Shown: positions 10,331 through 41,640 of the stretch, one piece after another | Layout: each line of letters opens with the position of its first letter | Position numbering within the stretch: position 1 is the first letter of the stretch | NCBI GenBank assembly: GCA_021205585.1 | Contig: JAJPXI010000207.1 | Span: 1 to 52,525 of the forward strand | Direction: 5' to 3' | Source: Oscillospiraceae bacterium | Lineage (GTDB): Bacteria; Bacillota; Clostridia; Oscillospirales; Oscillospiraceae | DNA length: 52,525 nucleotides | The notes under the pieces: generated by a model | Told to the model about the DNA's origin: nothing | The model's database searches: none | The model's input: only the letters and a program-made list of their open reading frames with translations | Position numbers and translations under genes: made by a program

Positions 10331-10628
10331 TAAATATCTATAGTCCCCCGCGTGGGTAACTGCGCGGTGAAAATTCGGTGAACCTGTAAATGCAGGGTGT
10401 GCGCACTGCGGTGCGTGCTAACGGTGAAACTCTCAGCTGAGACAACACCGTGCCAAGCCTTTGCGGAAACGCATTGGAAGGTGTAACGACTACAGCATAC
10501 GGCCTAAACGAGAGCATGGTTATGAAGCTGGTACTGCGCCGGTGAAACTCCGGCGCGGGAAGTGCCGAGCGCCCAGACTGCTGGGTGATGAGATAGTCTA
10601 TTCCCCATGGTGACATGGGGTAGTAAAG
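10331..10628 (+). mobile_element. Group I intron (298 nt, no ORF) inside the polymerase catalytic motif
   Basis: P1 is ggaT (10327-10330) with Gtcc (10343-10346), giving U.G at the splice site. P10 is tatg (10629-10632) with tata (10339-10342), directly adjacent. An R-like element ggtgtaacgactaca (10480-10494), an S-like gagatagtc (10590-10598) and several GNRA-type capped hairpins are present. The last nucleotide is G. The first intron codon is an in-frame TAA. Confidence 0.8.
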
Positions 10629-11738
10629 TATGACGGAGACCTGGTCATGCTGACCGACAACGAAGTCCTGGTGCGGAACTTCGAGCCGCTTCCCGCCCTA
10701 ATGTGCGTCCAGCGCAAGGCGGAAAAGAAAGTGCCGACGGAAGAAGACTTTGTAGAATCCAATCTTGCCAGCTTTGGCAACGAGATCGGACAGACGACAA
10801 ACCGGATCACAGCGATGTATGAGATCCAGTCCCGGTGCAGGAAGGGCGACCGGGAGTATGATGAGCTGGCGTACCGTATTCAATGCGGGCAGTTGTACCA
10901 GCAGAATTCAATCGACAAGGCGAAAGGGATTATCTGTAAGCCAATGCCGAAGACCTGGTACGACCGGCACGCGGTCAATGATATTGAAGACGGCAACACG
11001 CGGGAGTTCTACCGCAGCATTGTGGCGGACAAAAAGCCGTACTTCATGCGGTACGTCTACCCCGCCCTAATGAAGCAGTACAACACTTACATAAAGAACA
11101 CGGGCCGCAACGCCCAGCGGGAATTTCAGACGACCGTTGAGGAAATGAAGAGCGTTCCATACGGCGAGCTGAAGGATGACCAGAAGAAATTTCTCCATCG
11201 GTATGACTACGGGATGCCGGTCGGAGTTGGCGACTGCGTCATGAATCGGATTTGCCGCCGGTTCGAGCGGGAGTTCGATGGCCATATCAAAAAGCACAAT
11301 GCCTCCTCTCTATTCGACTACCGGATTCTGAAATCCGGCTGTGAGTATAGCGAGGATCAATTCCGCGAGATCAGACGGCTATACGACGAGTACGTCGCCC
11401 AGCTCAAGCGGTACAAGATATTCTCGGCCTACGAGAAGGTCGACGGAGATATTTCCTCCGCTGAGTTCCAGGTTATGAACGAGGCGTTCCGTGCCGCCTG
11501 CGTCACCACCTGTCCGAACGAGGCGACCCTGTGCGATACTCTGCTGGACTTGTGTTATACACGCAACGCGACCAAGCGGTTTGTATGGGAGATGTGTGGC
11601 TCGTCAATCATACAGAATTTACTAAATCGAAATGACAGGATGATCTCCGTGCCTGTCCGGTGCGAGGACGGAGAATTTACATACGCCGGAGAGCGGTATG
11701 CTGTGCGGCAGACAAAGCTGGACGAGGTGAGCGGTTGA
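10629..11738 (+). CDS. Two-barrel DxDGD polymerase candidate, exon 2
   Basis: It begins tat gac gga gac (YDGD) in the frame of track ORF 10647..11738. Ligation gives ...ALNGLD-YDGD-LVMLTDNE. Confidence 0.7.
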   Translation, partial: YDGDLVMLTDNEVLVRNFEPLPALMCVQRKAEKKVPTEEDFVESNLASFGNEIGQTTNRITAMYEIQSRCRKGDREYDELAYRIQCGQLYQQNSIDKAKGIICKPMPKTWYDRHAVNDIEDGNTREFYRSIVADKKPYFMRYVYPALMKQYNTYIKNTGRNAQREFQTTVEEMKSVPYGELKDDQKKFLHRYDYGMPVGVGDCVMNRICRRFEREFDGHIKKHNASSLFDYRILKSGCEYSEDQFREIRRLYDEYVAQLKRYKIFSAYEKVDGDISSAEFQVMNEAFRAACVTTCPNEATLCDTLLDLCYTRNATKRFVWEMCGSSIIQNLLNRNDRMISVPVRCEDGEFTYAGERYAVRQTKLDEVSG

Positions 11739-14859: not shown

Positions 14860-15885
14860 ATGCCGAGAAAAACAAAACACAACACCATCACATCGCCGGA
14901 GCTTCTGGCGAAGGTGAATCCGGAGAACACTGCATTGCTGAATGACTTTCTGGATTACCTACGGTCTACGGACAAAAGCGCGGGGACAATCGCCGCCTAC
15001 GAGAGCGATATTGAGATTGCCTTTGTCTGGTGCTTGCAGCACAACGAGAACCGGTTCTTTGTGGACTGGACGAAGCGCCAGATTGTGCAGTATCAGAACT
15101 GGCTGATCAATGAGAACGGGAATAGTCCGGCCAGAGTGCGGCGGCTGAAAGCGTCGCTGTCCAGCATGGCTAACTTCACGGAGTCAATTTTGGATGACGA
15201 GTTCCCGAACTTCCGCAACATTATCAATAAGGTGGAAAGCCCGATCAACCAGCCGGTGCGGGAGAAGACCATCTTCACCAGTTCGCAGATCGTCGGCCTG
15301 CTGGAGTACCTGACCGAGCGGGGTGCGTATGAGAAGGCTTGCGCTGTGGCGCTGGCGCTGTACTCCGGTCGGCGCAAGGCGGAGCTGCTGCGGTTCCGGG
15401 TATCGGACTTTACAGACGACCGGCTAGTCTGCGGCGGGAGTCTGTACAAGACCGGAAAGATCAAGACCAAGGGTCGCGGCGCACAGGGCAAGATGCTGGA
15501 GTGCTTTTGCCTGGCGAAGCAGTTCAAGCCGTATCTGGATCGCTGGCTTGAGTACCGGGAGCGGAACGGGATTGAGAGCGAGTGGCTCTTCCCTTCCAAG
15601 GAAGATCCGTCTGTACCCCTCGGCATTGCCACGCTGAACAGCTGGGCGATGTCCTTCAGCCGGTATCTCGATATGGATTTTTACTGGCATAGTCTGCGGC
15701 ATTTGTGTGTGTCCGACTTTAAGCGGGCTGGGATTCCTGATACCGTGATCCAGCAGTACATCGGCTGGGAGGACATCTCCATGGTGCCGGTGTACTCGGA
15801 TTTGCAGGCAGACGAACAGCTCAGTATGTATTTCAATGAGGACGGCATTGTCAAACCGGAACAAAAGGATTTGAGCGAAATCTGA
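14860..15885 (+). CDS. int: Tyrosine recombinase / phage integrase
   Basis: AAGGAGG SD. Has a SAM-like N-terminal domain, LALYSGRRKAELLRF (box I Arg), HSLRH (box II) and a C-terminal VPVYSD Tyr. Confidence 0.9.
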   Translation: MPRKTKHNTITSPELLAKVNPENTALLNDFLDYLRSTDKSAGTIAAYESDIEIAFVWCLQHNENRFFVDWTKRQIVQYQNWLINENGNSPARVRRLKASLSSMANFTESILDDEFPNFRNIINKVESPINQPVREKTIFTSSQIVGLLEYLTERGAYEKACAVALALYSGRRKAELLRFRVSDFTDDRLVCGGSLYKTGKIKTKGRGAQGKMLECFCLAKQFKPYLDRWLEYRERNGIESEWLFPSKEDPSVPLGIATLNSWAMSFSRYLDMDFYWHSLRHLCVSDFKRAGIPDTVIQQYIGWEDISMVPVYSDLQADEQLSMYFNEDGIVKPEQKDLSEI

Positions 15886-16421: not shown

Positions 16422-17413
16422 GTGGCCGTACTGTTCTCTGCTACCGGTGCGGAGCAGAGTACTCTAAATATAAAGGATTATTCCCGGTGAGTTACGCCAA
16501 TCTGCACAAGGGCGTTGGTTATCTTCCATGGTGCAAGAAATGCGTGGAGGATTTGTACAATACCTATCTGGCGCAGAGCAACGACGCGAAGGCGGCGGCG
16601 CGACAGGTGTGCCGGAAGCTGGACCTGTTCTGGAGCGATGCGGTATATGACCGGCTGGAGAAGACTGCTTCCCCGGCCAGCATTATGACTCAGTACATGA
16701 GCAGGCTGTGTTCCACATCTCTGGCAGGAAAGAGCTATGACGATACGCTCGCCGCAGAAGGGACACTATGGTCTTTCACAGTGCCGGATGTGCCGCTGGA
16801 GGAATCGGAGCCGGAGACAGAGGTGGAGGAAGAGCCGGAGATTGAAGTACCGGAGGAGATCCGCCAGTTCTGGGGGCCGGGGTACGACTCGGCTATGTAT
16901 CTGGAGATGGAGGAGCGGCGGCAGTATTGGCTCTCCCGGATGTCCGGGACGGGCGAGTTGGACATTGGCACTGAGGCGCTGATTCGCCAAATCTGTCCGC
17001 TGGAGATCGACATCAACCGGGAACGGGCGGCTGGGCATCTATCCGAGGCCGGGAAGCTGGCGGGCAATCTGAACAACCTGCTCGGCAGTATGAATCTAAA
17101 ACCGGTTCAGCAGAAGGACGATGTGGACGCCGACCTGGAGAAGACGCCGCTGGGCGTTGGCATTGCTAAGTGGGAATACTACAGGCCGCTGCCTCAGACG
17201 CCGGACAACATGAAAGACCAGAGTGGCCTTGTGAAAACAGTGTTGACATTTTTTACCGGACACCTGTGCAAGATGGCCGGTGTGAAGGGATTCCACAGTC
17301 GGATGTATGACGAAGCTATGGAGCGGCTGCGGGTCAAGCGGCCAGACATCGACGAGGAGGACGACCGGGAATTCCAGGCCAAGTTCTTCGATTCTGGAGA
17401 CGACCCAAAATGA
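16406..17413 (+). CDS. Putative terminase small subunit / zinc-ribbon DNA-binding protein
   Basis: It sits immediately upstream of terL and is translationally coupled to it (ATGA). It has an N-terminal CYRCG...CKKC and an acidic linker. The function is assigned by position only. Confidence 0.45.
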   Translation: MSLEIGGRTVLCYRCGAEYSKYKGLFPVSYANLHKGVGYLPWCKKCVEDLYNTYLAQSNDAKAAARQVCRKLDLFWSDAVYDRLEKTASPASIMTQYMSRLCSTSLAGKSYDDTLAAEGTLWSFTVPDVPLEESEPETEVEEEPEIEVPEEIRQFWGPGYDSAMYLEMEERRQYWLSRMSGTGELDIGTEALIRQICPLEIDINRERAAGHLSEAGKLAGNLNNLLGSMNLKPVQQKDDVDADLEKTPLGVGIAKWEYYRPLPQTPDNMKDQSGLVKTVLTFFTGHLCKMAGVKGFHSRMYDEAMERLRVKRPDIDEEDDREFQAKFFDSGDDPK

Positions 17414-19248
17414 GCGCCAAGAAGAAGACGGCCGAGAGCAACTCTCCTGCTGAGAAGACGCGCCGGGAGCGGGTCATTGAAGGCATGGCGATTTGGGCGA
17501 GCTATTACCGAGAGAACATCGACGCATTTCTGGACGACTATCTCGGACTGACTTTCCTAAAGCCATTTCAAAAAGCTCTGCTCGCCATGATGAACCGGGA
17601 GAGTGAATTTGTCTGGATCGCCGCCCGTGGTATGGGCAAGACCTTTCTAATTGCGATATTTGTCTGCGTGCGGGCTATCCTCTACCCGGGTTCGCTGATT
17701 GTTATTACAGCTGGCAACCGGGGGCAGAGCATCAACGTGCTGGAAAAAGTGCAGACGATTCTGATTCCAAAGTCTCCGGCTTTAAAGAATGAGATCGACC
17801 TGAACGCCACAAAGTTCGGCGGACAGGACGCAAAGATTATGTTTAAGAATACCAGCGTAATCAAGGTGGTCACGGCCAACGACGGCGCACGCTCCAACCG
17901 TGCGAACATCCTGATCGTGGATGAGTTTCGCCAGGTCAAGAAGGACACGGTTGACACCGTTCTGAAGAAGTTCCTGACCTCCAGGCGGATGCCGCAATAT
18001 ATAGAGCTGACAGAGGAAGAGCGGGCTGCTGAGTACGCTAAAGAGCGCAACAAGCAGTTCTTCCTGAGTTCGGCATACTTCAAGGATTCCTGGGCTTATC
18101 GGAAAACCATTGATACAGCCAACGCCATGATCGCCGACCCGGACAACGTGTTCTGTGTGGGTCTCCCCTACCAGCTCTCCATCCAAGAGGGGCTGTTGTT
18201 TGAGGAAGATTTGCAGGGCGATATGCGCGAGTCTGATTTCAGTGAGATCAAATGGAGCATGGAGATGGGCGCTGAGTTCTTCGGTGTTGGGGACGGGTCG
18301 TTCTTCGACTTTGACTCCATATCCAAGAACCGCCACATCAAGTACCCCATGCTGCCGGACAAATACGCTGCGCTGGTCGGTTATGACAAGCGGGTGAAAA
18401 TTCCGGCGAAGCAGCCAGGCGAAGTGCGGATTCTGTCTGCCGACATCGCACTGATGCGGAGCGGGAAGAACAAGAATGATGCCACAGCAATCTTTATCAA
18501 TCAGATGCTGCCTACCAAGGCCAAGCGGTATTCCAACAACATTGTATATACCGAGGTCTGCGAGGGTCTGCGGACTGACGACCAGGCGCTGGTGATTCGC
18601 AAGCTGTTCGATGAGTTTAATTGCGACTATCTGGTGATCGACGCTCAGGGCGTTGGGCTTGGCTGCTATGACGCGCTGGCCCGGGACATGACAGACCTGG
18701 AGACGGGCGAGGTCTACCCTGCCTTGTCGTGCTGCAACAACCAGGAGATGGCGGCCAGGTGTTCTGTGCCTGGTGCGCCGAAGGTAATCTGGTCGATTAA
18801 GGCCAGCGCCCAGTTCAACTCGGACTGTGCGTATATGTTGCGGGAGGCGTTCCGCAACGGGCGGATTCGTCTGCTGTGCAACGAGTTCGATGCGCACAGC
18901 GAATTGTTACCGGAGATTAAGGCTTACACCTCTCTAAGTGAAGAGAACAAAGTGAAGGTGGAGCTTCCTTATATAAACACAACACTTCTCGTCAACGAGC
19001 TGATTCAGCTCCAGCACGAGGAGGTCGGCAACCGGGTCAAGGTGTTTGAGAAGGTCGGGATGCGCAAGGACCGGTACTCCAGCCTTGCCTACAACTATTA
19101 CGTTGCGACTCAGGTTGCGAACAAACTCGGTCGGAGACAGCGGGGCAGCTCTTCCGACGCGAGCTTTTTTATTATCAAGCCGCCGAGCTATTCAGAGGGA
19201 AGGAAGGTGAGTGCGGGTGGCAGAAGAAACGAACCGGGCTGGTACTGA
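17410..19248 (+). CDS. terL: Terminase large subunit
   Basis: Walker A AARGMGKTF, Walker B ILIVDEF and a C-terminal nuclease-sized domain. 612 aa, and its position fits. Confidence 0.9.
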   Translation: MSAKKKTAESNSPAEKTRRERVIEGMAIWASYYRENIDAFLDDYLGLTFLKPFQKALLAMMNRESEFVWIAARGMGKTFLIAIFVCVRAILYPGSLIVITAGNRGQSINVLEKVQTILIPKSPALKNEIDLNATKFGGQDAKIMFKNTSVIKVVTANDGARSNRANILIVDEFRQVKKDTVDTVLKKFLTSRRMPQYIELTEEERAAEYAKERNKQFFLSSAYFKDSWAYRKTIDTANAMIADPDNVFCVGLPYQLSIQEGLLFEEDLQGDMRESDFSEIKWSMEMGAEFFGVGDGSFFDFDSISKNRHIKYPMLPDKYAALVGYDKRVKIPAKQPGEVRILSADIALMRSGKNKNDATAIFINQMLPTKAKRYSNNIVYTEVCEGLRTDDQALVIRKLFDEFNCDYLVIDAQGVGLGCYDALARDMTDLETGEVYPALSCCNNQEMAARCSVPGAPKVIWSIKASAQFNSDCAYMLREAFRNGRIRLLCNEFDAHSELLPEIKAYTSLSEENKVKVELPYINTTLLVNELIQLQHEEVGNRVKVFEKVGMRKDRYSSLAYNYYVATQVANKLGRRQRGSSSDASFFIIKPPSYSEGRKVSAGGRRNEPGWY

Positions 19249-20734
19249 TATAGAGAAGGAATTCGCCGGAATGGTCGGAGACTCTATGAAGTTCTCTGAG
19301 ATGAGCAAGATGCGTATGCGCGACCTCAACTCCGGCAGTCGAACGCCGTTCTTTGCGATGTACAGCAAGGACGACATCCAGCGGTTTTTATCCAACCCAT
19401 ATCGGTATGAGAAGCAGCTCCGCCGGGCTGTTATTTATATGTACGGAGCCAGCAGCCATTTCTGGCGGCTGATTCAGTATTTCGTCGGGTTGACGGACTT
19501 TGCCTATGTGGTCGAGCCGTATAAGATCGACCCGAAGAAAACCAACGCCAGAATCTTAGGCAACAACTACCGGAAGGTGCTGAACCTACTGGCCGGGATG
19601 AATATCAAGAACCAGTTCAAGAAAATCCTGACGGTATGTCTGCGGGAGGATGTGTTCTACGGGACGATGCACATCTCTGGAGACAACATCACCATTCAGC
19701 AGCTGCCAAGCGACTACTGCGCCATCTCTTCGGTTGAGGACGGCGTACCCAATGTCACATTTGATTTTACATATTTCGATAAACACAAAGACCGCTTGGA
19801 CTACTATCCAGAAGAGTTCCGGTTGAAGTACGAGAACGTCTACAAGAAGCAGCTGCGGACCAGATGGGTTGAGCTGGACTCCCCCACCTCCTTTGCCGTA
19901 AAGTGCAACAGTGATATTCTCCACTATGCCATGCCGCCCTTTGCCGGTCTACTGCGTGAGCTGTACGACCTGGAAGAGTATAAGCGGCTGAAGATGCGTA
20001 AGACCGGGCTGGAGAATTACGCTATGCTCGCCATGATGATTCCGCTGGACAGCAACGGTGATTGGGGAATTGACATGGACAAAGCGCGTGACTTCTGGAA
20101 GAACTTAGACGCGGTTCTGCCGGAAGAGGTCGGCTCCGTGCTGACCCCAATGGAGATTAACAAGATCAGCTTCGAGAAGTCCAACACCGCCGACACCGAT
20201 ACGATTTCGGACGCGGAGCAGCATTTGTTCACGGCCGCCGGTGTGTCTTCTCTCCTGTTTAATAATGAGAGCGCTTCAGCCAATGCGCTGCTGCTCTCGA
20301 TTAAGAACGACCAGTCCATTACCTACGGAATTGTCAAGAGCATTGGCGATGTGATCAACCGCTATCTGTGGTCGCAGAGCTACGGGAAGAACTTCAAGGT
20401 CAATATGCTGAATGTCAGCGCTTATAACAGCAAAGAGGTTGGCGACTCGGCGCTGAAGGCGGCCACCTACGGGCTGCCGATGATTTCGATTTACGCCGCC
20501 TCTCAGGGACTTGGGCAGGCCGAGCTGGACTCTATGAGCTTCCTGGAGACCACGGTACTTGGCCTGCAAGATGTGTTCCGTCCGCTGCAAAGTTCGGCCC
20601 AGATGAGTTCCAGCGATACCGCCGCTGCGCAGGACAGTCCGACAGACGGCGAGCCCGGCGCTCCAAAGAAGGACGTCGGTGAGCTGACCGACAGCGGCGA
20701 GCAAAGCTCAGAAGACTCGGATGATTGGGGGTAG
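19211..20734 (+). CDS. Portal protein
   Basis: About 500 aa, directly after terL, with an acidic C-terminus. The start is GTG 19211 or 19217. Confidence 0.75.
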   Translation: MRVAEETNRAGTDIEKEFAGMVGDSMKFSEMSKMRMRDLNSGSRTPFFAMYSKDDIQRFLSNPYRYEKQLRRAVIYMYGASSHFWRLIQYFVGLTDFAYVVEPYKIDPKKTNARILGNNYRKVLNLLAGMNIKNQFKKILTVCLREDVFYGTMHISGDNITIQQLPSDYCAISSVEDGVPNVTFDFTYFDKHKDRLDYYPEEFRLKYENVYKKQLRTRWVELDSPTSFAVKCNSDILHYAMPPFAGLLRELYDLEEYKRLKMRKTGLENYAMLAMMIPLDSNGDWGIDMDKARDFWKNLDAVLPEEVGSVLTPMEINKISFEKSNTADTDTISDAEQHLFTAAGVSSLLFNNESASANALLLSIKNDQSITYGIVKSIGDVINRYLWSQSYGKNFKVNMLNVSAYNSKEVGDSALKAATYGLPMISIYAASQGLGQAELDSMSFLETTVLGLQDVFRPLQSSAQMSSSDTAAAQDSPTDGEPGAPKKDVGELTDSGEQSSEDSDDWG

Positions 20735-30527: not shown

Positions 30528-32020
30528 TTGGCAACTGATTCTTCGCAAATACAACTGGTTGTGGGCGTAGACCAGAGTGCGAGTTTAAAGAATTTTAAAG
30601 ATGGAGTCAATGCTCTAATTGCGGAGGTAAACAAAGACCCGCCCAAAATCAAGGTGGAAATCGACACTGGTTCTGCCAAGTCAATCAAATCACAAATTGA
30701 TTCTGCGCTGAAAACTGCCAGCTCCGGTGGCACCTCTCTTGGGACGCAGTTTAAGTCGGCGACGACGGAAGTCCAGAAGCTGGTATCCACGCTCGGCAGC
30801 CTGGATGATAAGAGTTTGGGGCAGCTAACGTCCACACTGAGCAGCTTTGAGAATATATCCGCCGATGGAGCGAAGCAACTTGTCGCAGCGCTAAGCAATG
30901 TTAGTGGTAAAGTGACTGATGTCACGGCCAAGGTGAGAACGCTTGCAGATGGAGAGCGGCAGCTTGACTCCGTCACAGTGAAGGCTGTGGATGATTTTGG
31001 CAACATAGTCACACAGACCTCTAAGTGGAACGCAAAAACAAAGGAAGTATCCAGCACATTAGAGACCGTACACGCGAAAATGGATGCGACCGCGAAGGCT
31101 CAGGAGACGGCGACTGCGGCTACGAGCAAAAATACGAATACGACTCAGCAGAATGTAGCAGTTGAGAAAAGTTATATCAGCGTGCTATCCAATTGCAATT
31201 CCTTTTTAGAGCGGTATACGGCGGCAAAGAACAGTCACAATTCAAGTAGTCGCGCTGCGTACACAACTGTCGAGCAGGAGAAATCTGCTATGGAGGCTGC
31301 GTACAGCGCATATAAAACCGGCGCTCTTTCTTTGGAAGCGTTCAAGAATGCGATCAATAACACATCGGTCAAGATAAGAGAAAATACAGTTTTACTAAAG
31401 GCGAATGGTGACGCAACGAAAACTCTGGTCGGGCGCGTATCTGATTTAGCTGCCAAATTTAGCTCGTGGTTCTCCGCATATACAATTGTAATCAATATGA
31501 TGAAAGCCATGAAGTCTTTGGCGTCTGCCTCTGTCGAGATCGAAGACGCAATGGCTCAGATCCAGATTGTCACCGGGGCGACGGACTCACAGTTGACCAA
31601 GTTTCTGTCCGAGGCTATCGACCTCGCCAAAGAGTTGGGACAGTCTGTGACCGATGTGGCCTCCGCGATCGAGACGTTCTCCCGTTTGGGCTACAGTTTC
31701 GATGAAGCGTCTGAGCTGGCTGAGTACGCCACGATTCTGGCAAACGTAGCCGATACGGATGTTGACACGGCTACGACAGGTCTGACTTCAATTATCAAAG
31801 GCTACAGTCTGGAGGCTTCTGACGCGGAGCATATCGCCGATGTGCTTGTCACAGTCGGTCAGGAGTACGCCATCTCTGCCGAAGAATTGATGGAAGCATT
31901 TGAGCGCGGCGGCGCTGCCTTAGCTGCAACTGGCGCGACAGTGGAACAGAGTGCTGGTTTGTTTGCGGCGACCAATGCTGCGTTGCAGGATGCTTCGACG
32001 ACTGGTACGATGTGGAAGAC
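30528..32020 (+). CDS. Tail tape-measure protein, exon 1
   Basis: TTG start after GGGAGGTGA. The sequence runs into the conserved TMP core, ending ...AATNAALQDASTTGTMWK(T). The track ORF continues only 7 more codons to TAG 32040. Confidence 0.8.
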
Positions 32021-32530
32021 AAACTACTGTCTTTGTGTATAGAAATATGCGCATAGAACATATTTAATTGCAGGTAACGCCTAAAGCCTTACACCACAAT
32101 AGTCGGGAAACCAGATTATGACGGGGCGAAAGCGGAAACAACGTAAGGATGGCATATGGCCAAAAGCCTAAGTGCCAAGTTTACTAATTTGTATAAATTA
32201 GAAATGGCTGTTCGTGCAGCGAAGCACCCTAACGTATCCCACAGACCATGTGGTACTTAGCCGAGGGTGAACGTTCAACGACTATCCCCCTGTCGGGGCG
32301 TAGAAATATCCGTCTTGGATTATCAAATAAGGGTGGAAATCCCGAATATCTGCGCCAATAGGAGTACGGCACAATCGCAAAGGTGTTGGTGAGAACCCAT
32401 TAAACGGAAAAGGTATGCTTGCTGCTTGTGAAAGCGTGAGTAAGAAATAGTCTCCTCTCCATGTGAAAGCATGGGTATTATGAAATTGATTCGTAGTAGA
32501 TGCGTGTTGCGAACGCATTTAAGATATATG
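32021..32530 (+). mobile_element. Group I intron 1a in the tape-measure gene (about 510 nt, no credible ORF)
   Basis: P1 is gaagac (32015-32020) with gtcttt (32029-32034). P10 is agta (32531-32534) with tact (32025-32028), adjacent. P-like aattgcagg at 32066, R-like cgttcaacgactatc at 32271-32285, S-like aagaaatagtc at 32442-32452. A P9-like hairpin ccatg-tgaaag-catgg and a hairpin atgcgt-gttgcga-acgcat follow, and the intron ends ...gatatatG. The 5' boundary has C rather than U at -1. Confidence 0.65.
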
Positions 32531-32552
32531 AGTAAGTGCAAGGATTCGGGGT
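32531..32552 (+). CDS. Tape-measure micro-exon (22 nt, completes the Thr codon then encodes VSARIRG)
   Basis: a|gta agt gca agg att cgg ggt supplies exactly the x-S-x-R-x-R-G segment missing between GTMWKT (exon 1) and ATTELDELGE (next exon). A TGA at 32529-32531 lies immediately upstream in the same frame. Confidence 0.6.
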
Positions 32553-32882
32553 CAACATAAATGTGCCCAGCAAACAGAAATGTTTGTACAGCCTCCTTGT
32601 AAAACAAAGGCTGCTCAATAACTATATAAGTCAAAACGCTGTGGGAAGCGCAAGACTTAGGAAAGACTGTGAATACAGAATCCTCAGAGACTGCGGGGTG
32701 TATGTGGCAACACATATGCTGAAGTTATTCTCCCTGCCTATTTTGGCGAGAGTGATATACAGTCCGATCTCACGATATAATCCCACATAATATGAAACGT
32801 GAGAGCTGGCCGGAAACGACCAGCCGCCATGCGAAATACATGGTCAGTAGTCGTGCTAATTCCGACGAAAGTAACAGTTATG
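32553..32882 (+). mobile_element. Group I-like intron 1b in the tape-measure gene (about 330 nt); 3' boundary uncertain
   Basis: P1 is gggT (32549-32552) with Gccc (32565-32568), giving U.G. A GAAA-capped hairpin caaaca-gaaa-tgtttg is present. P7-like pairing is gactgt (32665-32670) with acagtc (32759-32764), inside the S-like gatatacagtcc. 3' hairpins are ctcacg/cgtgag, gctgg..ccagc and ccatg..catgg. In-frame G-terminated 3' sites exist at 32831, 32864, 32867 and 32882. Protein consensus favours 32882 (RIRG|ATTELDE). Confidence 0.5.
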
Positions 32883-35800
32883 GCCACTACAGAATTAGAC
32901 GAGCTTGGCGAGTCCTCCGAGGATTGTGCTGACGGCATTTCTAAATATCGGGAAGAAGTCAAGGCTCTAACCGGCGTTGACATCATGATTGACGACAACA
33001 CCTACAGAGATGTCTATGACATTTTCGTTGATATTGCGAATGTTTGGAATGACCTGAGTGATACAGCACAGGCTCGTGTGTCCGAAATTTTGGGCGGCAC
33101 AAGGCAGCTCTCTGGTGTGTCCTCTACTATTACAAATATTGCGGACGCTATAGGCGCATATGAGAGCGCAATGGATTCCGCCGGGGCCGCAACTGAGGCC
33201 AACGACATCTACATGGAGACGACCACCGCTCATATTGCACAGCTGAACGCGGCGACGCAGGAGCTTGGCAGTGACCTGTTCAATCAAGATATGTTCAAGA
33301 CCTTTTTTGACGGTGCGACAAAAGCTATAGAAGCTATTGATGTTCTTGTTAGCCACATGGGAATGATCGGTACCGGAGGACTTGCCGGGCTTGCCGCAGG
33401 TTTCAAAAGTATATTTTCATCCGCCAGCAATTTTTCTAAACAATTGAGTGACGTTTCAAGCATAGCTAATAGCATCGGGACTGCTACTACATGGGCAGCT
33501 AATTATGCAGATGCTATCGAAGGATGCAACGACGCGACAAAGAACTTGCTGTTGTCAAGCGGCGGGTTGAGTACGCAACAGCAGACGCTTGTTCAAAATA
33601 TTTTAAAGGCGCGGACGGGCATATCCAACCTTACGGCCGCAGAGGTAATGGACGAGCTTACAAAGCAGGGGCTAATCACCGCCGAAGAGACAGAAACGGT
33701 GATGAAAGAACTCAACATTACTAAAACCCAAAAGCTAACAGAGTCTCAGCTTACTGCGGCGTATGCTTCCGGAACTCTAACAGAATCGCAGTACAATACC
33801 GCGATGGCGTTAGTCGCCGAGTCAACGGCGGCGGCCAAAGCCACAACTTCGACGACATCTTTTTCGACCGCGATTAAAGGCGCAATGGCGACTAACCCCG
33901 TCGGCTGGATTATGTTGATTGTCAGCACTTTGGTATCGCTATACAGTATTGTTAAAAATAATACGGATTTATTCAGTACCACGTCTGAAAGGTTAGAGAA
34001 GCTACAGTCCGATCTGGAAGAGCTGGAGGAGACCATTGACTCCGCCGCATCCTCTTTTAAAGAATTGCGGGAGACGTTAGAACTCGATTCTGACGCAACT
34101 GTCATTGACGAATTCGCGGAGCTTGCCAAAGGTGTTAATCAGTTTGGTGAAAATGTTGACCTAACAGAAGATGAGTATGAGAGATTTACGGAACTGCAAA
34201 GCACACTTGCCGAGTTATTCCCGTCCATAGACAACGGGTTAAACTCAAATGGAGAGCAGATGCTGGCACTGTCCTACTCTTCCGATACATTGGCCGAGTC
34301 GTTATATGCGTTGGCGGATGCGGAGCTTGCGGCGTATCAGCAAGAAATAGCTGATACCATGCCAGACCTTGTAAAAGACATCGCAAAAGAGACTAAGATA
34401 TACCAGAACCAATTGTCCGATTTGGAAGATCAGTATACCGTCTTGACCGCACTAAGTAGCGGGTATGCCAATTATTCAGACGTTGGTCGAATGATGCCAT
34501 ATCAAGATGTTGCTGACTTATTAGAATCGTATGGATTGTCGGCCTCTCAAGATATTTATGGGATGTCTGTTGATCTGAATACAGACGAGGCTCTGGCTGC
34601 ATATGAAAGTGCTTTGGCTACGCTCGAGCAGGAAATAAAGCAGGTAAACGACGAGGTAGCAGATGCTTGGACTGATTTAAACCCAGTTATTACATCGTGG
34701 CTTTCTACCGATTATACCTATAATGAGTTAAGTGACGAGATGCAGGATCTTCTCGCCTCTCTGATTGGAAATATTGATTTTTCGGAGCTTGGCTATGGCA
34801 CAGCAGATGACATCCAATCCTATATCAAGACCAATTTCTTAGTGCCAATTTATAACGCAAGTGATGAAGTACAGGAGGCTTGGAGCGATCTAATAGCGGT
34901 CGACACCTCTGATACCTCTTATTCCAAATTATACAACACAATTCACGAGTATGCTAATGTTGTAGCAGATGGCATTGGTCAAGACGTAGAGGATATTGTA
35001 TCTTCTCTGTACGGCGATACACTGGAAACGTACAATGATAAGATCATCGCTCTGACGGAGGAGTTCCAGGAGAGTTCGTTCTATGCGACCTCTGCGGCGG
35101 AGGATGCCGCTGAGAGTATGACCAGAGTATATAGCTTTTGGCTTAACAATCTGGAGGTTGGGGACCTCGACCTGGTGTATACTCTGTCCCTGCAAGAGGA
35201 CACCAGTGGCTGGACGTTACGGGATTGGCAGGATAATCTTGAGAAACTTCGTGAGTACACTGACGCGACCAACTTCACCATCGACATCGACGCGGAGACC
35301 GAGGGGCTTGAGGCTGTCAACACCGCTCTGGCTGAGACCGCATCGGCCACTGGTCTAACATCAGATTCTATTGAAACGCTCAAAGAGCGGTATCAGGACT
35401 TGGAGGACTTTGACGCAGACGCTCTGTTCGAGAACACGTCCTATGGTGTGCGGCTGAATACAACTGAGCTGAAGAAGCTGGAAGATGAGTATGAGGCCGT
35501 TATCAAAACCGGCTTTGATGAGAAGCTCGAAGAGCTGGCGGATGAGTATAACGAGGCCAAGAGCGAATTGTCCAGCTATCTGGGAGATGTGGACGCCTAC
35601 AACGAAAAGCTGTCCGAGCTGGACGCAATCGAGGCTCAGATTGAAGAGACTGAGATTCTCGCCTCCCAGTATGGAGCGCTGACCTCTGCGTATAACGAGT
35701 GGCAGAACGCCATGAATACCGACAACCAGCGGGATACCTATGAGTCCATCGGTGCAAGCTATGAGGATATGCAGGACATCCTGAACGCCGGGTGGTACAA

Positions 35801-37045
35801 TGATGATTCTTTACAGTCATACCTCGATCTGTTGCTCGGCGAGGAAAATCGCACTGGTGATGCCCTGAAGGATTTTGCTAAGCTCAGTGAGACCATCGCT
35901 GGGACAACGCACTCCATCATGGATTACTGGGCGTATGACGAGGACGGCAATCTGCTGTCCAACGGTCTGGTGGATTTTCTGGAAGATGTGCGCCAAGTCA
36001 TGGGCGAGGACTATGTTTGGCTTGACGAAGAAGGCAGTTATGTATTCGATCTGACGGGCGATAAGATACAGGAAGTCGCTGACCGGTTCGGTATGGGCAC
36101 GGAAGCCATTGAATATTTCATCACAGCCTTGGGGGATGTCAGCGGGACGGTTGCTCTTGAGGATATTAGTGATACGCTTGACCTAATTACGACCAGAGCT
36201 GAGGATGCGATTGCGACACTACAGGGCATTGAAGGGCTGACGGACTTTGAGTTCGATCTGAACACTTCGGACGTGGACGAACTCCAAGATGACCTGGCGG
36301 AAGCACAGCGGATTTACGACTCTATGTTGGATGAAAACGGCATTCTCAATTTGGATATAGAGGGTGCGGACGATGCATATGCTTTACCTTACGCTATCAA
36401 TCTTCAGATTCAGCAGATCGAGCAACCGGCCATTATGACCGTTGACACGTCGTCGTTCAAAGAGGGGTACGAGATTGTTGCGGACGCCGCCGCGAAGATT
36501 ATAGAATATGGCGAATTGGTAAGTCAGCTAAAGCTCTACGAATCTCTTGGTAAGGATACAACCGATATAGTCACGGATCTACAGGAGGTTTCCGCAGAGC
36601 TTTCTAATATCTCTAAAGACGCATATATCTCTCTCGGTCTTGATACAGAAACCATAGAGGAGATAAAGAGCATCACTTCTGAATGTTCTGTAGAGCTTGA
36701 TCAGGATAGCGTTGATGCCGTGATGGATATACTTGGCTCCATAGACGTTGACGATCTACCGCTTGAGTGCGATACCGATGCAGTCGAGGAAGCGTTTGAA
36801 TATTATGAGGAATATCAGTTTGGCGACAAAACTATCGTTGTGACGGTATCCGGCGGGGCGCTCAAAGACCTGCGGGTGATACAAAGCGTTGTAGACGATC
36901 TGTCCGGAGCAAGCATTGCGATAGGCACAGCATCGAATGCAGACGGTACTGCCCACGCCACTGGTACGGCCAAAGCCAGTGGGGATTGGAGCGTCGGGTC
37001 GAGCGGAGAGTCTCTGGGAGGAGAACTCGGACAAGAACTCGTGGT
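32883..37045 (+). CDS. Tail tape-measure protein, exon 3 (main body)
   Basis: In the frame of track ORF 32799..37067. ATTELDELGESSEDCADGISKYREEVKALTGVDIMIDDNTY...ILGGTRQ continues the TMP core, followed by long helical repeats. It ends ...GGELGQELV(V). Confidence 0.8.
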
Positions 37046-37369
37046 TTTGCGAAGCCACGCCGCTTAGTGATAAGCGGTTCATAATTTATTGAATTGCTGG
37101 AACACCCTTAGAGCCTTACCACCAAAACGGAGTAGCGAATAGCTACAAACGGCAATGGTTTGAAAACGGTAGGGATTGGGCAATCAGCAGCCAAGCCGCG
37201 AATAGCGGAAGGTTCAACGACTATCCCGCAAGGGAGTAGGGCCGCAAGCGATTGGCAGCTCGAAGCAGTAAATTACCTATTATATAGGTAAAAGATATAG
37301 TCTGAACTCATGTGAGAACATGAGGGGCGATGCCCTGTCCGGTGTAGCGAACCGGGCAAAACATAATTG
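37046..37369 (+). mobile_element. Group I intron 2 in the tape-measure gene (324 nt, ORF-less)
   Basis: P1 is cgtggT (37040-37045) with Gccacg (37054-37059). P10 is cgcaa (37371-37375) with ttgcg (37047-37051). P2 is cgctta-gtga-taagcg. P ttgaattgctgg at 37089-37100, Q gggcaatcagcagccaagc at 37178-37196, R ggttcaacgactatc at 37210-37224, S aaaagatatagtc at 37290-37302. It ends ...ataattG. The boundary is good to within a few nt. Confidence 0.85.
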
Positions 37370-37959
37370 ACGCAACGGCAGATGGTTCACCATCGGGGAC
37401 GACGCGGCAGAGTTCTTCCACCACGAACCAAATGACATTATATTCAACGCAGACCAGACTGAGCAGATCTTCAAGTACGGTAAGATAGTAAGTGGTCGCA
37501 AGAGAGGAACATCTTTCCTTACTGGCACTGCGTTTACTGGCGGCTCCGGCAGCGGAGTCAGCCCCTCTACGACCGCCACCGCCTCCACTGCCAAGACCAG
37601 CTCTTCTTCGAGCAGTTCATCCAGCAGTTCTTCTGACTCCGACGACGAGAATACAGAAGAGGTCATCGACTGGATTGAGATCGCAATCGACCGGATTGAG
37701 CGGGCGATCGACAATCTGGCTACCATAGCGGAGAGCGCGTATCACACGCTTGCCGAGCGGCTGAGCGCGACGAAGGACGAAATCTCCACAATCACAGAGG
37801 AGATTCAAGTTCAGCAGGCGGGCTATGACCGGTATATGCAAGAGGCCAACTCTGTCGGGTTGAGCAGTGACCTTGCGGCTAAGGTCATGGACGGCACCAT
37901 CGACATTGAGACGCTGGATGAGGATACCGCAGATTTAGTAAGCCAATTTCAAGAATGGT
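37370..37959 (+). CDS. Tail tape-measure protein, exon 4 (absent from the ORF track because it has no start codon)
   Basis: An open frame from 37371 encodes RNGRWFTIGDDAAEFFHHEPNDIIFNADQTEQIFKYG...poly-Ser...EEVIDWIEIAIDRIERAIDNL...DLVSQFQEW. A TGA lies immediately upstream at 37368-37370. Confidence 0.8.
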
Positions 37960-39361
37960 ATATTTTCATGCCGCTGTACCTGGAACTGGTACGGCTTTTC
38001 TACTGAATTGCTGGGACGCCCCAAAGGTGACTAAGCCAAAACGTGAGAATGAAAGATGTCTGAGCGTGACGGCGGCGAAAGCAGAAAAAATTAGGCACAT
38101 AGGATATGGCGAAAGCCTAAGTCCTTTACAACGGGCAATCAGCAGCCAAGCTCCGAATAGGAGAAGGTTCACAGACTATCGCTGAAATGCGAGTAGGGCC
38201 GCAAGCGATTGGCGGCTCGAAGTGGTAGATTACTTATAATTGCAATTTAGAAGCCAATGATAGGAGGTGAAATATGTTTGATGAAAATCAATTAGTTATG
38301 GTACGTTGGAATAATACAAATAAGGAATGGTACGAGTTGATGGGTTACAAATATACAAAACGATATGACCCCTTTTATGTAAAAGCAAAGCATCTTTCCT
38401 TACATTCTTCGGCGCAGATAGTTGTTGTGTGTGATTATTGTGGAAACGAATATAAAACACAGTATGCCTTAATTACAAACGGACGTCTACTTCTTAATAA
38501 GGATGCGTGCTCTAAGTGCGCGCCCACGAAGGCCAACGAGCTTAGATGGGCGAGAATGTCAAGAAAAAAGATGGGTGAAGCTCGGCGTATTTGTGATGAG
38601 TGCGGATATGAACTAATCTCTTCTGAAGATGATTATGCCGGAGCCACGGCCGCCATTCAATTTCGATGCCCGATACACGGTATCCAGACTATGAATCTTG
38701 ACAATCTTTTGAGAGGGCATAGGTGCAGAGATTGTGGCTATGATAGCGTTAGGGTAGCCTTAAAGCACAGTGGCGATTATGTCAAACAGGAAATCGAGAA
38801 GGTAAATGGCAATATACTACTAAACCCAGAAGATTATAAAGGGGCGTTTATCAACAATCTGCGTATTAGATGTAGGTGCGGAAATGTATTTACAACGGCG
38901 TTTTCCAGCTATACTAAGGCAGGGATAAATCGTTGTCATACATGTTCGTGCAAAGAGAGCAGTGGGGAATTAAAAATCAGGGAGTTTTTGGAGTCAAAAA
39001 ATATCACTTTCGTTCAGGAGAAAAGATTCAAAGATTGTTGTGATAAAAAGCCACTCCCGTTTGATTTTTATTTGCCAGACTATAACACTATTATTGAGTT
39101 TGATGGTCAGCATCATTATATGCCGGTACACGGAGAAGATCGCTACCTCGTGACAATAGCTCACGACCAAATAAAGAACCGATATTGTTGTGCCCACGAC
39201 ATTCATCTATTGCGTATTCCATATTGGGAAGGTAAACGTATGGAGGAAATTATCGCAAACGATCTAAAAATTGCAATATGAGTAAAAGATATAGTCGAAT
39301 CTCATGGGAAACCCATGAGGGTAAAAGCCCGTCGGGTGTAGCGCCCCGGCGAAATAAAATG
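37960..39361 (+). mobile_element. Group I intron 3 in the tape-measure gene (1402 nt) carrying a homing-endonuclease ORF
   Basis: P1 is tggT (37956-37959) with Gccg (37970-37973). P10 is atgaaaa (39362-39368) with ttttcat (37963-37969), 7 bp and contiguous with P1. The core is nearly identical to intron 2: P at 38003-38015, Q at 38133-38151, R ggttcacagactatc at 38166-38180, S aaaagatatagtc at 39284-39296. The last nucleotide is G at 39361. Confidence 0.9.
38274..39281 (+). CDS. Intron-encoded homing endonuclease candidate: zinc-ribbon repeats plus a C-terminal PD-(D/E)XK / Vsr-EDxHD-like nuclease
   Basis: ATG follows TAGGAGGTGA inside intron 3. It has three CxxC...CxxC-type modules, then GELKIREFLESKNITFVQEKRF...LPFDFYLPDYNTIIEFDGQHHY...DQIKNRYC...HLLRIPYWE. 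AT content is higher than in the flanks. Confidence 0.75.
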   Translation: MFDENQLVMVRWNNTNKEWYELMGYKYTKRYDPFYVKAKHLSLHSSAQIVVVCDYCGNEYKTQYALITNGRLLLNKDACSKCAPTKANELRWARMSRKKMGEARRICDECGYELISSEDDYAGATAAIQFRCPIHGIQTMNLDNLLRGHRCRDCGYDSVRVALKHSGDYVKQEIEKVNGNILLNPEDYKGAFINNLRIRCRCGNVFTTAFSSYTKAGINRCHTCSCKESSGELKIREFLESKNITFVQEKRFKDCCDKKPLPFDFYLPDYNTIIEFDGQHHYMPVHGEDRYLVTIAHDQIKNRYCCAHDIHLLRIPYWEGKRMEEIIANDLKIAI

Positions 39362-41640
39362 ATGAAAAGGCCCTCGACTGCTCCGACGCAATTCTTGAGC
39401 TGAAAGAAAATCTAGCCGACCTGTACTCTGAGCAGTTCACTCTCATCGAAGAGGACTACGAGAACCAGCTCGCCCTGTTGGAGCACCTGACCACCACATA
39501 CGACAACGCCATCACCGATACAGAGACCCGTGGGTATCTGGTGAGCAAGGAATACTACAAGGCGCTGACGGAGGTAGAACAGGAGAGTATCGCCGTGATG
39601 GAGAGCGAGTTGGACAGCTTGCAGTCTGCTCTGGCTGAAGCTCTGGACTCCGGGACAATCTCCATGTACAGTTCCGAATGGTATGATATGCAGGAGTCCA
39701 TCAACGCGGTCACGGAGTCCATTCAGGAGGCCACCACGTCCCTCGTGGAGTATGCCAACGCTATGCGGGAGTTGGATTGGGATTACTTTGACTATGTTGA
39801 AGACCAGATCAGCAACCTGACCAGTGAGGCCGACTTCCTGATCGACCTGATGTCCAATACAGATCTGTACACCGATAACGGCCAGCTGACCGATACCGGT
39901 ATTTCCACTATGGGTCTACACGCCCAGAACTACGATACCTATATGTACCAGGCCGACGACTATGCTGAGCAGATCGAGGAGTTGAACGAGGCGATCGCAG
40001 ACGATCCGTTCAACACGGATTTGCTGGAACGCAGGCAAGAGCTGCTTGAGTTACAGCAGGAATCCATTCTGGCTGCCGAGGAAGAGAAACAGGCCATTGT
40101 GGATATGGTTGAGGAAGGCATTGAGCTGGAGCTGAGCGCCCTTCAAGATCTTATAGATCAATACGAAAATTCTTTAGACTCAGCAAAAGATTTATATGAC
40201 TACCAAAAGTCAATCTCTGACCAAACTTCCGAAATTGCAAGTTTGCAGAAACAACTTTCCGCGTATTCGACCGGCAACGATACTTCCGAAGAAACACGAG
40301 CAACGGTTCAGAAACTACAAGTCAGCCTGGAAGAAGCCGAGACCGAGCTGGCCGAGATGCAATACGAGCAGTTTATTAGCGACACTAAGCAAATGCTCGA
40401 CAACCTGTACGACGAGTATGAGCTGATTTTGAATCAGCGGCTGGATGACATTGACTTACTAATCAGCGATATGATTACCGCTGTAAACGCCAATGCTATT
40501 ACAATTAACGACACCTTGCTAAGCCAGTCGGAAGCTGTTGGATATACGATGTCCACCGAGATGTCTAATATTTGGCAGACGGCCTCGGACGCTTTGCGAG
40601 AGCTTTTTAGCGAACTTGGTATCGACATTGAGAACGCTACGACTCTTAACACAGACAAGATGCAAGAGCTTCTTGATAGTCTCGGAATTGATATTGATGA
40701 CGCGACTTTATCCGTAGGAGATATGGTCAAACTGTATCAAGCAGCTGTGGAGCAAAACGGGAAAGATTACACTACAGCTGTGACGACATACGGACCGGAT
40801 TTCTCCGACAAACAGACGACGACTAATCAAACGCTGGACAGCATCAAGGCGTATGTAGCGGCTATGCAGCAAGCGTCCGACACGACAGCCGCTGCTACTG
40901 TCAGTGAAACTAAATCGTCTTCCAGCAGTTCCACATCCTCTTCTTCCAGCTCGTCCAGCTCCTCTTCCACGAAGTCAAGCAGCAACAGCTCTGGCGGCGA
41001 CGGGGTTGTGGCGGTTGGCGACAAGGTGACATTCAAGAGCGGCAAGTATTATACCGACTCCTATGGTACATCGCCGACTGGGTCTAAGTATCTCGGTGAG
41101 AGCGTATATGTGACGAAGGTTGTGTCCAGTCCGAAGTCTGGGCAGAACTACCCGATTCATATCAGCACCGGGAACAAGCTCGGCAATGGCGACTTAGGCT
41201 GGATTAAGAAGGATCAGATTACCGGGTACAAGACCGGCGGTCTGGTAGATTACACCGGCCTTGCTCAGCTGGACGGCACGCCGCAGGAACCGGAGCTTGT
41301 TCTGAATGCAACCGATACGGCGAACTTTATTGCGCTAAAGGACGCTATGGCTGATGTTGCGAACGGTAACACGCTGACGGCTCTCTTTGGAGACAGCGCG
41401 GCGGAAAATCTGCTGGAGCAGCTTACAACAATCGGTATGCCGCTGAGTGTGGAATCCGCCGGTATCACGCAGGACATCAATTGCACGATGAATGTGGCGA
41501 TCGACCATGTGGAAGACTATAACTCGCTGGTCAACCAAATGGTGAAAGATCCGCAGTTCGAGAAATTTGTGCAAGCTATGACGGTAGACCAAGCTGTTGG
41601 TGGGAGTAAACTGGCAAAGAACAAATATAAATGGGGATAA
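39362..41640 (+). CDS. Tail tape-measure protein, exon 5 (C-terminal part with poly-Ser linker and SH3b-like segment)
   Basis: It joins as tgg t|at gaa aag (W-Y-E-K) in the frame of track ORF 39478..41640. It contains helical repeats, a Ser-run at about 40915-40992, and GDKVTFKSGKYYTDSYG...GWIKKDQITGY. Confidence 0.8.

Follow-up and report, generated by a model that had tools for sequence, protein, structure and literature searches.

The window analysed here comprised positions 1 to 52,525 of contig JAJPXI010000207.1 (assembly GCA_021205585.1, Oscillospiraceae bacterium), a stretch of 52,525 nucleotides (nt) read on the forward (+) strand. It carries a phage tape-measure gene at 30528-41640 (+) that consists of five exons and four intervening sequences. 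A sequence-only reading had described it as one tape-measure gene interrupted by four group I introns, and this central claim was supported by colinear homologues, Rfam matches, covariation within the ribozymes and insertion sites shared with other phages. The features of the gene (TMP, tape-measure protein; ORF, open reading frame; aa, amino acids) were as follows.

30528..32020, + strand: TMP exon 1, 1493 nt; TTG start; ends ...GTMWK plus 'ac'; the PF10145 and TIGR01760 domains begin here
32021..32530, + strand: intron 1a, 510 nt, without an ORF; RF00028 36.3 bits, E 1.5e-6
32531..32552, + strand: micro-exon, 22 nt, AGTAAGTGCAAGGATTCGGGGT; third base of Thr plus VSARIRG
32553..32882, + strand: intron 1b, 330 nt, without an ORF; divergent group I type
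32883..37045, + strand: TMP exon 3, 4163 nt; starts ATTELDELGE, ends ...GQELV plus 'gt'
37046..37369, + strand: intron 2, 324 nt, without an ORF; canonical IA-like group I
37370..37959, + strand: TMP exon 4, 590 nt, without its own start codon; VRNGRWFTIGDD ... QFQEW plus 't'
37960..39361, + strand: intron 3, 1402 nt; holds the putative endonuclease ORF
38274..39281, + strand: putative homing-endonuclease ORF, 335 aa; ribosome-binding site GGAGGTG; in the P8 loop of intron 3
39362..41640, + strand: TMP exon 5, 2279 nt including the stop; starts (Y)EKALDCSDAILELK

Joined reading frame and homologues

The three long ORFs of the sequence-only reading (30528-32042, 32799-37067 and 39478-41640) were confirmed in the ORF list, and its open frame without an ATG was found from 37371 in a three-frame translation of the gaps, which also revealed the heptapeptide VSARIRG within the first gap, in frame with exon 1. 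A Shine-Dalgarno sequence, GGGAGGTG, lies 7 nt upstream of the TTG start of exon 1. Joining the exons (1493 + 22 + 4163 + 590 + 2279 nt) reproduced the length given earlier: 8547 nt were obtained, comprising 2848 codons plus a stop, and the sole stop was terminal. With splice sites marked by a slash, the predicted spliced junction of exon 1, the micro-exon and exon 3 reads ...ATGTGGAAGAC/AGTAAGTGCAAGGATTCGGGGT/GCCACTACAGAA..., and the other predicted junctions read ...GAACTCGTGGT/ACGCAACGGCAG... and ...CAAGAATGGT/ATGAAAAGGCCC...; an example of a predicted junction peptide is TVSARIRGATTELDELGESSEDCADGISK. Unspliced read-through past the 5' junctions of introns 1a, 1b, 2 and 3 met a stop after 7, 22, 7 and 15 codons, in agreement with the early stops already reported, so that the primary transcript would be untranslatable past residue ~500. 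All four intervening sequences ended in a terminal G (omega-G: G32530, G32882, G37369 and G39361), as had been noted.

The N-terminal 704 residues of the joined product matched PF10145 (PhageMin_Tail; 90.4 bits, cut-off 33.2, E 2e-25) and TIGR01760 (NCBIfam tape_meas_TP901; 111.6 bits, cut-off 28.8, E 4e-32). Each match was a single stretch through join 1, which is the exon 1/micro-exon/exon 3 region and contains both the intron 1a and the intron 1b site. A search with the whole joined product against a collection of 5.8 billion proteins gave 346 proteins at E <= 1e-10; of the best 120, nearly all were single proteins of 2400-3200 aa with PF10145. Windows of 60-70 residues centred on the joins were then compared with these 120 homologues by BLASTP. 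Local alignments spanning joins 1, 2 and 3 numbered 100, 98 and 111, with zero gaps at any join. Homologues read ...TGTMWKTVSARIRGATTELEEMGE..., ...GELGxELVVRNGRWFTIGD... and ...YQEWYEKALDC... through the joins, and ...MWKTVSARIRGATTELEE... without gaps through the micro-exon region. The conserved segments that the joins had been said to rebuild were therefore recovered in more than 100 uninterrupted homologues, and the conceptually spliced 2848-aa product was colinear with intron-less homologues at all four joins. For joins placed as predicted, the match of VSARIRG in the correct order and frame, together with the gapless homologues, is far beyond chance. TMPs of cultured phages were at most 35% identical in the tape-measure domain.

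Ribozyme features and occurrence in relatives

Group I core motifs, a P1 helix and a P10 pairing had been claimed for every gap. The gathering score of Rfam model RF00028 is 50 bits, and at curated thresholds the model detected one group I intron here, intron 2, one of five introns in the window. Introns 3 and 1a were below threshold but significant, whereas intron 1b reached 9.2 bits. The P, Q, R and S motifs stood up in introns 1a, 2 and 3, but in intron 1b only divergent R- and S-like elements were found; aattgcNgg and aatcagcagc were absent from it. P1 was present in all four introns, and P10 in 1a, 2 and 3 but not in 1b. A U.G wobble is near-universal at the 5' splice site of group I introns. 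It was present in P1 of introns 1b, 2 and 3; intron 1a has C-G at this position.

Two other kinds of element were rejected. An intein is incompatible with stops within 7-22 codons of each 5' junction and with the frame changes between exons. For group II introns, no Rfam match was obtained in the window at E <= 0.1, and the sole intron ORF is of the endonuclease kind.

Relatives were taken as tape-measure loci from IMG/VR, with 41 loci available for the join-1 region and 80 for the joins 2-3 region; individual loci are given by L numbers. They came from human gut metagenomes and from metagenome-assembled genomes of Ruminococcus, Faecalibacillus and Lachnospiraceae.

In intron 1a, P1 is formed by exon positions 32015-32020 (GAAGAC) with the internal guide sequence at 32029-32034 (GUCUUU), and P10 by guide positions 32025-32028 (UACU) with exon positions 32531-34 (AGUA; 4 bp). 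P-like, R-like and S-like motifs were located at 32066, 32274 and 32442. The sole alternative boundary, shifted one base 3', would give an intron ending in A. An intron at the same site in L024 was 74% identical to intron 1a (protein identity 70%), and similar introns were present elsewhere in the tape-measure genes of L040 and L014. RNAalifold on 4 copies of the 1a family predicted 86 pairs, 38 of them compensatory, in helices P1, P2, P4-P6, P7 (GACUA/UAGUC) and P9.

The micro-exon encodes VSARIRG, seven residues that are nearly invariant in the tape-measure family. P10 of intron 1a uses its first 4 nt and P1 of intron 1b its last 4 nt, so its ends are predicted to serve two different ribozymes. 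Neither in sequence nor in ribozyme type is intron 1a related to intron 1b. If the micro-exon is skipped and exon 1 is joined to exon 3, the product is out of frame and meets a stop five codons on; introns 1a and 1b must therefore both splice accurately and keep the micro-exon. A single intron filling gap 1 was rejected on the same grounds, since the exon 1-exon 3 join is out of frame and VSARIRG is lost.

Intron 1b pairs exon positions 32549-32552 (GGGU) with 32565-32568 (GCCC) in P1, placing U.G at the splice site. Its core contains P3 (AAUAACU/AGUUAUU), P4 (UAAGUC/GACUUA) and P7 (GACUG/CAGUC; 32688-92 with 32760-64). The divergent R- and S-like elements are CTCAGAGACTG and GATATACAGTC; R-like CUCAGAGACUG and S-like GAUAUACAGUCC of the intron agree with the consensus of group I introns apart from one change in P7, which is compensated. 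The same site, after VSAR[IL]RG, was interrupted in five IMG/VR loci (L030, L034, L037, L039 and L040) by elements of ~2 kb whose two ends are both homologous to intron 1b of the window, and each of these elements carries a 480-560-aa ORF in the P6 region. The window copy lacks an ORF, and a short hairpin closes its P6a.

For covariation, the five copies were aligned with their ORFs taken out (alignment A1), and a group I-type core was drawn on the alignment, comprising P3, P4, P5, P6/6a, P7 (in pseudoknot with P3), P7.1, P8, P9 and three 3' hairpins. In this alignment 97.2% of cells pair, and 24/59 pairs have changed on both sides. None of 500 shuffles reached the observed values, and sliding the partners by 1-3 columns left 29-44% paired. 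P1 of L034 covaries with its exon (AGAGGU with guide GCCUC; GGGGU with GCCC in the others). RF00028 gave no match at E <= 0.01 on the relatives' insertions at the 1b site. A search by nhmmer with alignment A1 found the family also just 5' of MWKT (L027, L028 and L031-33), in L036 and in L012, and found no further 1b-type copy in the window. We conclude from these features that intron 1b is a group I intron of a lineage poorly modelled by RF00028.

Intron 2 was matched by RF00028 over the full length of the model (37036-37324, 77.5 bits, E 5e-18). Its P1 pairs 37040-45 (CGUGGU) with 37054-59 (GCCACG), and its P10 pairs 37047-51 (UUGCG) with 37371-75 (CGCAA; 5 bp). In intron 3 the ribozyme is split by a 1-kb ORF, and RF00028 matched a 5' part (37940-38293, 42.3 bits, E 3e-8) and a 3' part (39209-39319, 22.1 bits). 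P1 pairs 37956-59 (UGGU) with 37970-73 (GCCG), and P10 pairs 37963-69 (UUUUCAU) with 39362-68 (AUGAAAA; 7 bp). A long P8 stem of 15 bp (38232-38247 with 39269-39283) closes the ORF loop and unites the ribozyme halves. Introns 2 and 3 are paralogues: 108 nt of the core are 83% identical by blastn, and both align to the full RF00028 model. Their exon flanks, TGGT/ACGCAACGGC and TGGT/ATGAAAAGGC, are alike at 11/14 positions, a post-hoc observation; this similarity suggests ectopic homing of an intron-3-type element into the intron-2 site.

Unannotated sequence near 8.6 kb in Enterocloster phages CB457P1/P2 and CB473P1-3 also resembled the intron 2 core (about 37177-37265 of the window), with 86-97% identity over 36-89 nt, and the core matched sequence annotated 'portal protein' in Pseudomonas phages KIL1-5. 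These matches suggest that related introns may occur in other structural genes. Megablast against INPHARED returned short intron-core matches only.

The ORF in intron 3 ends with a stop codon 5 nt upstream of the S element. It matched phrog_559 (E 1e-57, residues 39-332), phrog_9084 'homing endonuclease' (E 1e-28) and phrog_7140 'intron encoded nuclease'. Cys-rich repeats are followed by a C-terminal Vsr/PD-(D/E)xK-like part (...FDFYLP...IEFDGQHH...). Pfam gave one weak CapR match (E 0.003), and a PDB sequence search returned spurious zinc-finger and ribosomal-protein matches only. The ORF probably encodes a homing endonuclease of the PHROG 559/CapR-repeat plus Vsr-like type, an activity assigned from these resemblances. 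The exact protein was found on just one other contig (Logan SRR15221350), apparently of the same phage.

Among the relatives, at least 13/41 loci were interrupted within about 16 codons of join 1. This hotspot comprises at least five distinct positions: before MWKT, after WKT, after RG, after RGAxxE and near residue 440. Short exons between introns recurred. L024 (1246-3000) has an intron after GTLWKT, a ~34-nt exon encoding VSARIRGAKTE and a second intron four codons 3' of the window 1b site, and L036 (2446-3000) has a 1b-type intron, then the exon NMWKTVSARIRGADVE (about 45 nt), then another intron. The intron-3 site was occupied exactly in 10/80 loci, and one copy there without an ORF scored 87.8 bits. 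Other recurrent sites lie near residues 2196 and 2366, and several loci of the joins 2-3 region hold two introns in the visible half-gene. Judging from these relatives, four introns may be no ceiling in this clade. Apparent insertions near residue ~1810 in eight loci were left out of the counts; this region is poorly conserved, and they may represent divergent protein rather than introns. On the 172-kb IMG/VR phage contig of L028, Rfam RF02920 'Fusobacteriales-1 RNA' was also matched above threshold (5292-5418, 73.5 bits), about 2 kb downstream of the interrupted tape-measure region.

Interpretation and alternative explanations

We consider it very likely that the tape-measure gene was invaded four times by mobile group I introns and that the ligated mRNA encodes a protein of 2848 aa. 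Each ribozyme would fold and excise itself by two-step, guanosine-initiated transesterification, with P1 positioning the 5' exon and P10 and the terminal G positioning the 3' exon. Introns 1a and 1b lie 22 nt apart inside GTMWKT-VSARIRG-ATTELEE, the best-conserved motif of the protein. The resemblance of introns 2 and 3 suggests that intron 2 is a copy which arrived by ectopic homing and then lost its endonuclease gene. Intron 3 would retain the endonuclease in its P8 loop, at a site commonly invaded in relatives, and introns 1a and 1b would likewise be ORF-less descendants of endonuclease-bearing relatives.

Several observations weigh against this interpretation. Intron 1a, at 36.3 bits, is below the RF00028 gathering threshold, and the score of intron 1b is not significant, so that the model does not recognise it. 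P10 was looked for in intron 1b and its relatives and none was found. P1 of intron 3 has just 4 bp, two of them wobble. The base preceding the 5' splice site of intron 1a is C32020, not U, and pairs with the guide G. The intron-2 site was occupied in 0/80 relatives. No near-identical intron-less allele was found in IMG/VR, GTDB genomes or JGI/ENA metagenomes, where the best relatives had about 70% amino-acid identity, and these searches accordingly gave no evidence of recent mobility. The splicing of all four introns, and likewise the order of invasion, are deduced from sequence. The exons are nevertheless colinear with uninterrupted homologues, the ribozymes show homology and covariation, and the sites are common to other phages. 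The identical C-G pair is present at the 5' splice site of the L024 copy (around 1231-1260), and the C at -1 was accordingly read as a tolerated or functional variant, not as damage.

A rival account is that of a decaying TMP pseudogene in a defective prophage, in which the introns are kept by descent, at least one (most plausibly 1a or 1b) no longer splices and no full-length protein is made. The C at -1 and 36.3 bits of intron 1a, the lack of an RF00028 match or visible P10 in 1b, and the loss of the endonuclease ORF from three of the four introns are consistent with decay, and a tyrosine integrase in the window (14860-15885) permits a prophage state. This account is nonetheless unlikely, since the frame is intact in five exons over 8.5 kb with conserved motifs at each join, compensatory changes have preserved the helices in both the 1a and the 1b family, and the adjoining structural genes are intact. 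The occurrence of C at -1 with a matching guide G in the independent L024 copy, only 74% identical, also argues for function.

That the three long ORFs are separate, independently translated split tail proteins, with mobile elements between them that are never removed from the mRNA, is scarcely credible. GenBank annotates similar cases in this way (for example phage TR-TP1, below), and ORFs 32799 and 39478 have nominal GTG/TTG starts. These starts, however, lie within intron sequence or downstream of conserved residues, and a start codon is absent from exon 4. In more than 100 homologues the sequence colinear with the joined product forms a single protein of 2400-3200 aa; the micro-exon restores seven invariant residues, and the Pfam domain would otherwise be split mid-motif. 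It is also very improbable that gap 1 is a single composite element, either one intron with a long 3' extension or an intron followed by 1b as a non-splicing, GIR1-type branching ribozyme. The RF00028 match in gap 1 does end at 32475, and the best Rfam match for 32581-32798 is GIR1, a group-I-derived model (15.5 bits, E 0.22). That score is far under the 100-bit threshold of the GIR1 model, however; if exon 1 is joined straight to exon 3, the frame is lost and VSARIRG is removed, and 1b-type elements stand alone between exons at the same site in L030, L034 and L037.

Invasion by four group I introns can also be extended into a broader reading, which we regard as unlikely. The GTMWKT-VSARIRG-ATTELEE motif in large TMPs of gut-Firmicute phages would be a battleground where unrelated intron/endonuclease lineages compete for overlapping targets, giving stacked introns with micro-exons between them, of 22 nt in the window, about 34 nt in L024 and about 45 nt in L036. 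The efficiency of splicing, or skipping of the micro-exon, could then set the ratio of full-length protein to a truncated N-terminal product of ~500 aa or time tail assembly, and the 1b-type ribozyme could be an undescribed group I subgroup.

The window is a packaging/structural module of an uncultured phage of gut Firmicutes, and this phage is probably temperate. The tape-measure gene follows the portal/capsid module; a virion protein is also encoded upstream of it and a DUF6558 tail protein downstream. Two genes upstream of the tape-measure gene were located as follows.

17410-19248: terminase
19211-20734: portal

The tyrosine integrase (PF00589, E 8e-18) lies mid-module, upstream of the terminase. 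Just past the DUF6558 tail protein, a very large ORF begins at about 42816 and runs off the window; on the Logan contig it is at least 2921 aa. A fifth group I intron at 10342-10620 (+) (RF00028 44.3 bits, E 4e-8) splits another gene, and the flanking ORFs (8882-10333 and 10647-11738) match consecutive parts of phrog_8308 (101-537 and 584-824 of 847). ORF 8882-10333 passes Pfam PF05183 'RdRP' (34.7 bits, cut-off 23.8), a family which presumably includes YonO-like single-subunit phage RNA polymerases.

Gene callers give three unrelated ORFs for the tape-measure gene and miss exon 4 and the micro-exon; the GenBank record of TR-TP1 is similarly affected. Tail-length prediction, protein clustering and phage taxonomy from such ORF calls would be wrong. 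RF00028 catches one of five window introns at threshold and misses one lineage entirely, so the number of group I introns in uncultured phages is underestimated. The locus further supports an occurrence of phage introns outside nucleotide-metabolism genes as well, and it shows that several lineages can share a homing hotspot in the best-conserved part of a structural gene. With unrelated ribozymes separated by just 22 nt, and C at -1 in one of them, the locus would offer a compact natural system for the study of coordinated group I splicing.

Comparison with known systems

The earlier description of four introns in one tail gene as highly unusual was overstated: introns in tape-measure genes (PMC2504315), three introns in Twort orf142 (as summarised in PMC10136302) and up to three per gene in Bastillevirinae (PMC11878797) have been published. 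No report of four introns in one phage gene was found in the limited literature searched.

The tape-measure genes of Bacillus cereus-group prophages carry group I introns of types IA1/IA2 (TMP-IVS1, TMP-IVS2 and TMP-IVS3) at three sites, with up to two per gene (Tourasse & Kolsto 2008, PMC2504315). As with introns 2 and 3, near-identical introns occur there at different sites with re-adapted P1/internal guide sequences; most copies are without a complete endonuclease gene and are inserted at conserved sequence. The B. cereus-group protein is ~1200 aa and its gene has no micro-exon (PMC2504315), whereas the present gene has four introns, encodes 2848 aa and belongs to an unrelated lineage of uncultured gut-Firmicute phages.

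Stacking of introns around a very short exon is known from orf142 of Staphylococcus phage Twort, where three group I introns include two separated by a 23-nt exon (Landthaler & Shub 1999, as summarised in PMC10136302); the same summary gives a 34-nt exon between two introns in the Coxiella 23S rRNA gene. Twort orf142 resembles the present case in having several group I introns in one phage gene and a ~22-23-nt exon between two of them. According to that summary, however, the short exon lies between IA2 introns that closely resemble each other, and it was seen to be skipped, whereas introns 1a and 1b are unrelated, skipping would bring a frameshift with a stop after 5 codons, and the host gene is another one.

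In Bastillevirinae, polymerase and terminase genes have up to three introns (Weglewska et al. 2025, PMC11878797). These are IA-like group I introns often split by an endonuclease loop, PHROG 559 endonucleases with a Vsr-type fold occur in the TerL introns, and Rfam-type models often see one ribozyme side only, all of which recalls the introns described here. The genes invaded there are not tape-measure genes but those for DNA polymerase, TerL, thymidylate synthase and ribonucleotide reductase, with three introns per gene as the maximum (PMC11878797). CapR-repeat plus EDxHD/Vsr-like endonucleases form a large, previously unrecognised family in phage introns (PMC12350094, 2025). The intron-3 ORF shares the Cys-rich repeats and nuclease-like C-terminus of this family, its membership being suggested by PHROG matches and weak Pfam matches.

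A comparable case in a cultured gut phage is Thomasclavelia phage TR-TP1 (PQ571309; L127, 23866-35967), whose tape-measure gene is broken by two endonuclease-bearing insertions. One insertion contains the 3' half of a 1b-type ribozyme (L127 5999-6149, nhmmer E 7e-22). Unlike those of the window, the insertions lie elsewhere in the protein and leave join 1 intact. In the record the pieces are entered as separate coding sequences ('tape measure protein / HNH endonuclease / tape measure protein / HNH endonuclease') and not as introns; the insertions are probably unannotated introns. Set beside these systems, the present gene is an extreme example of an already described kind and not categorically new.

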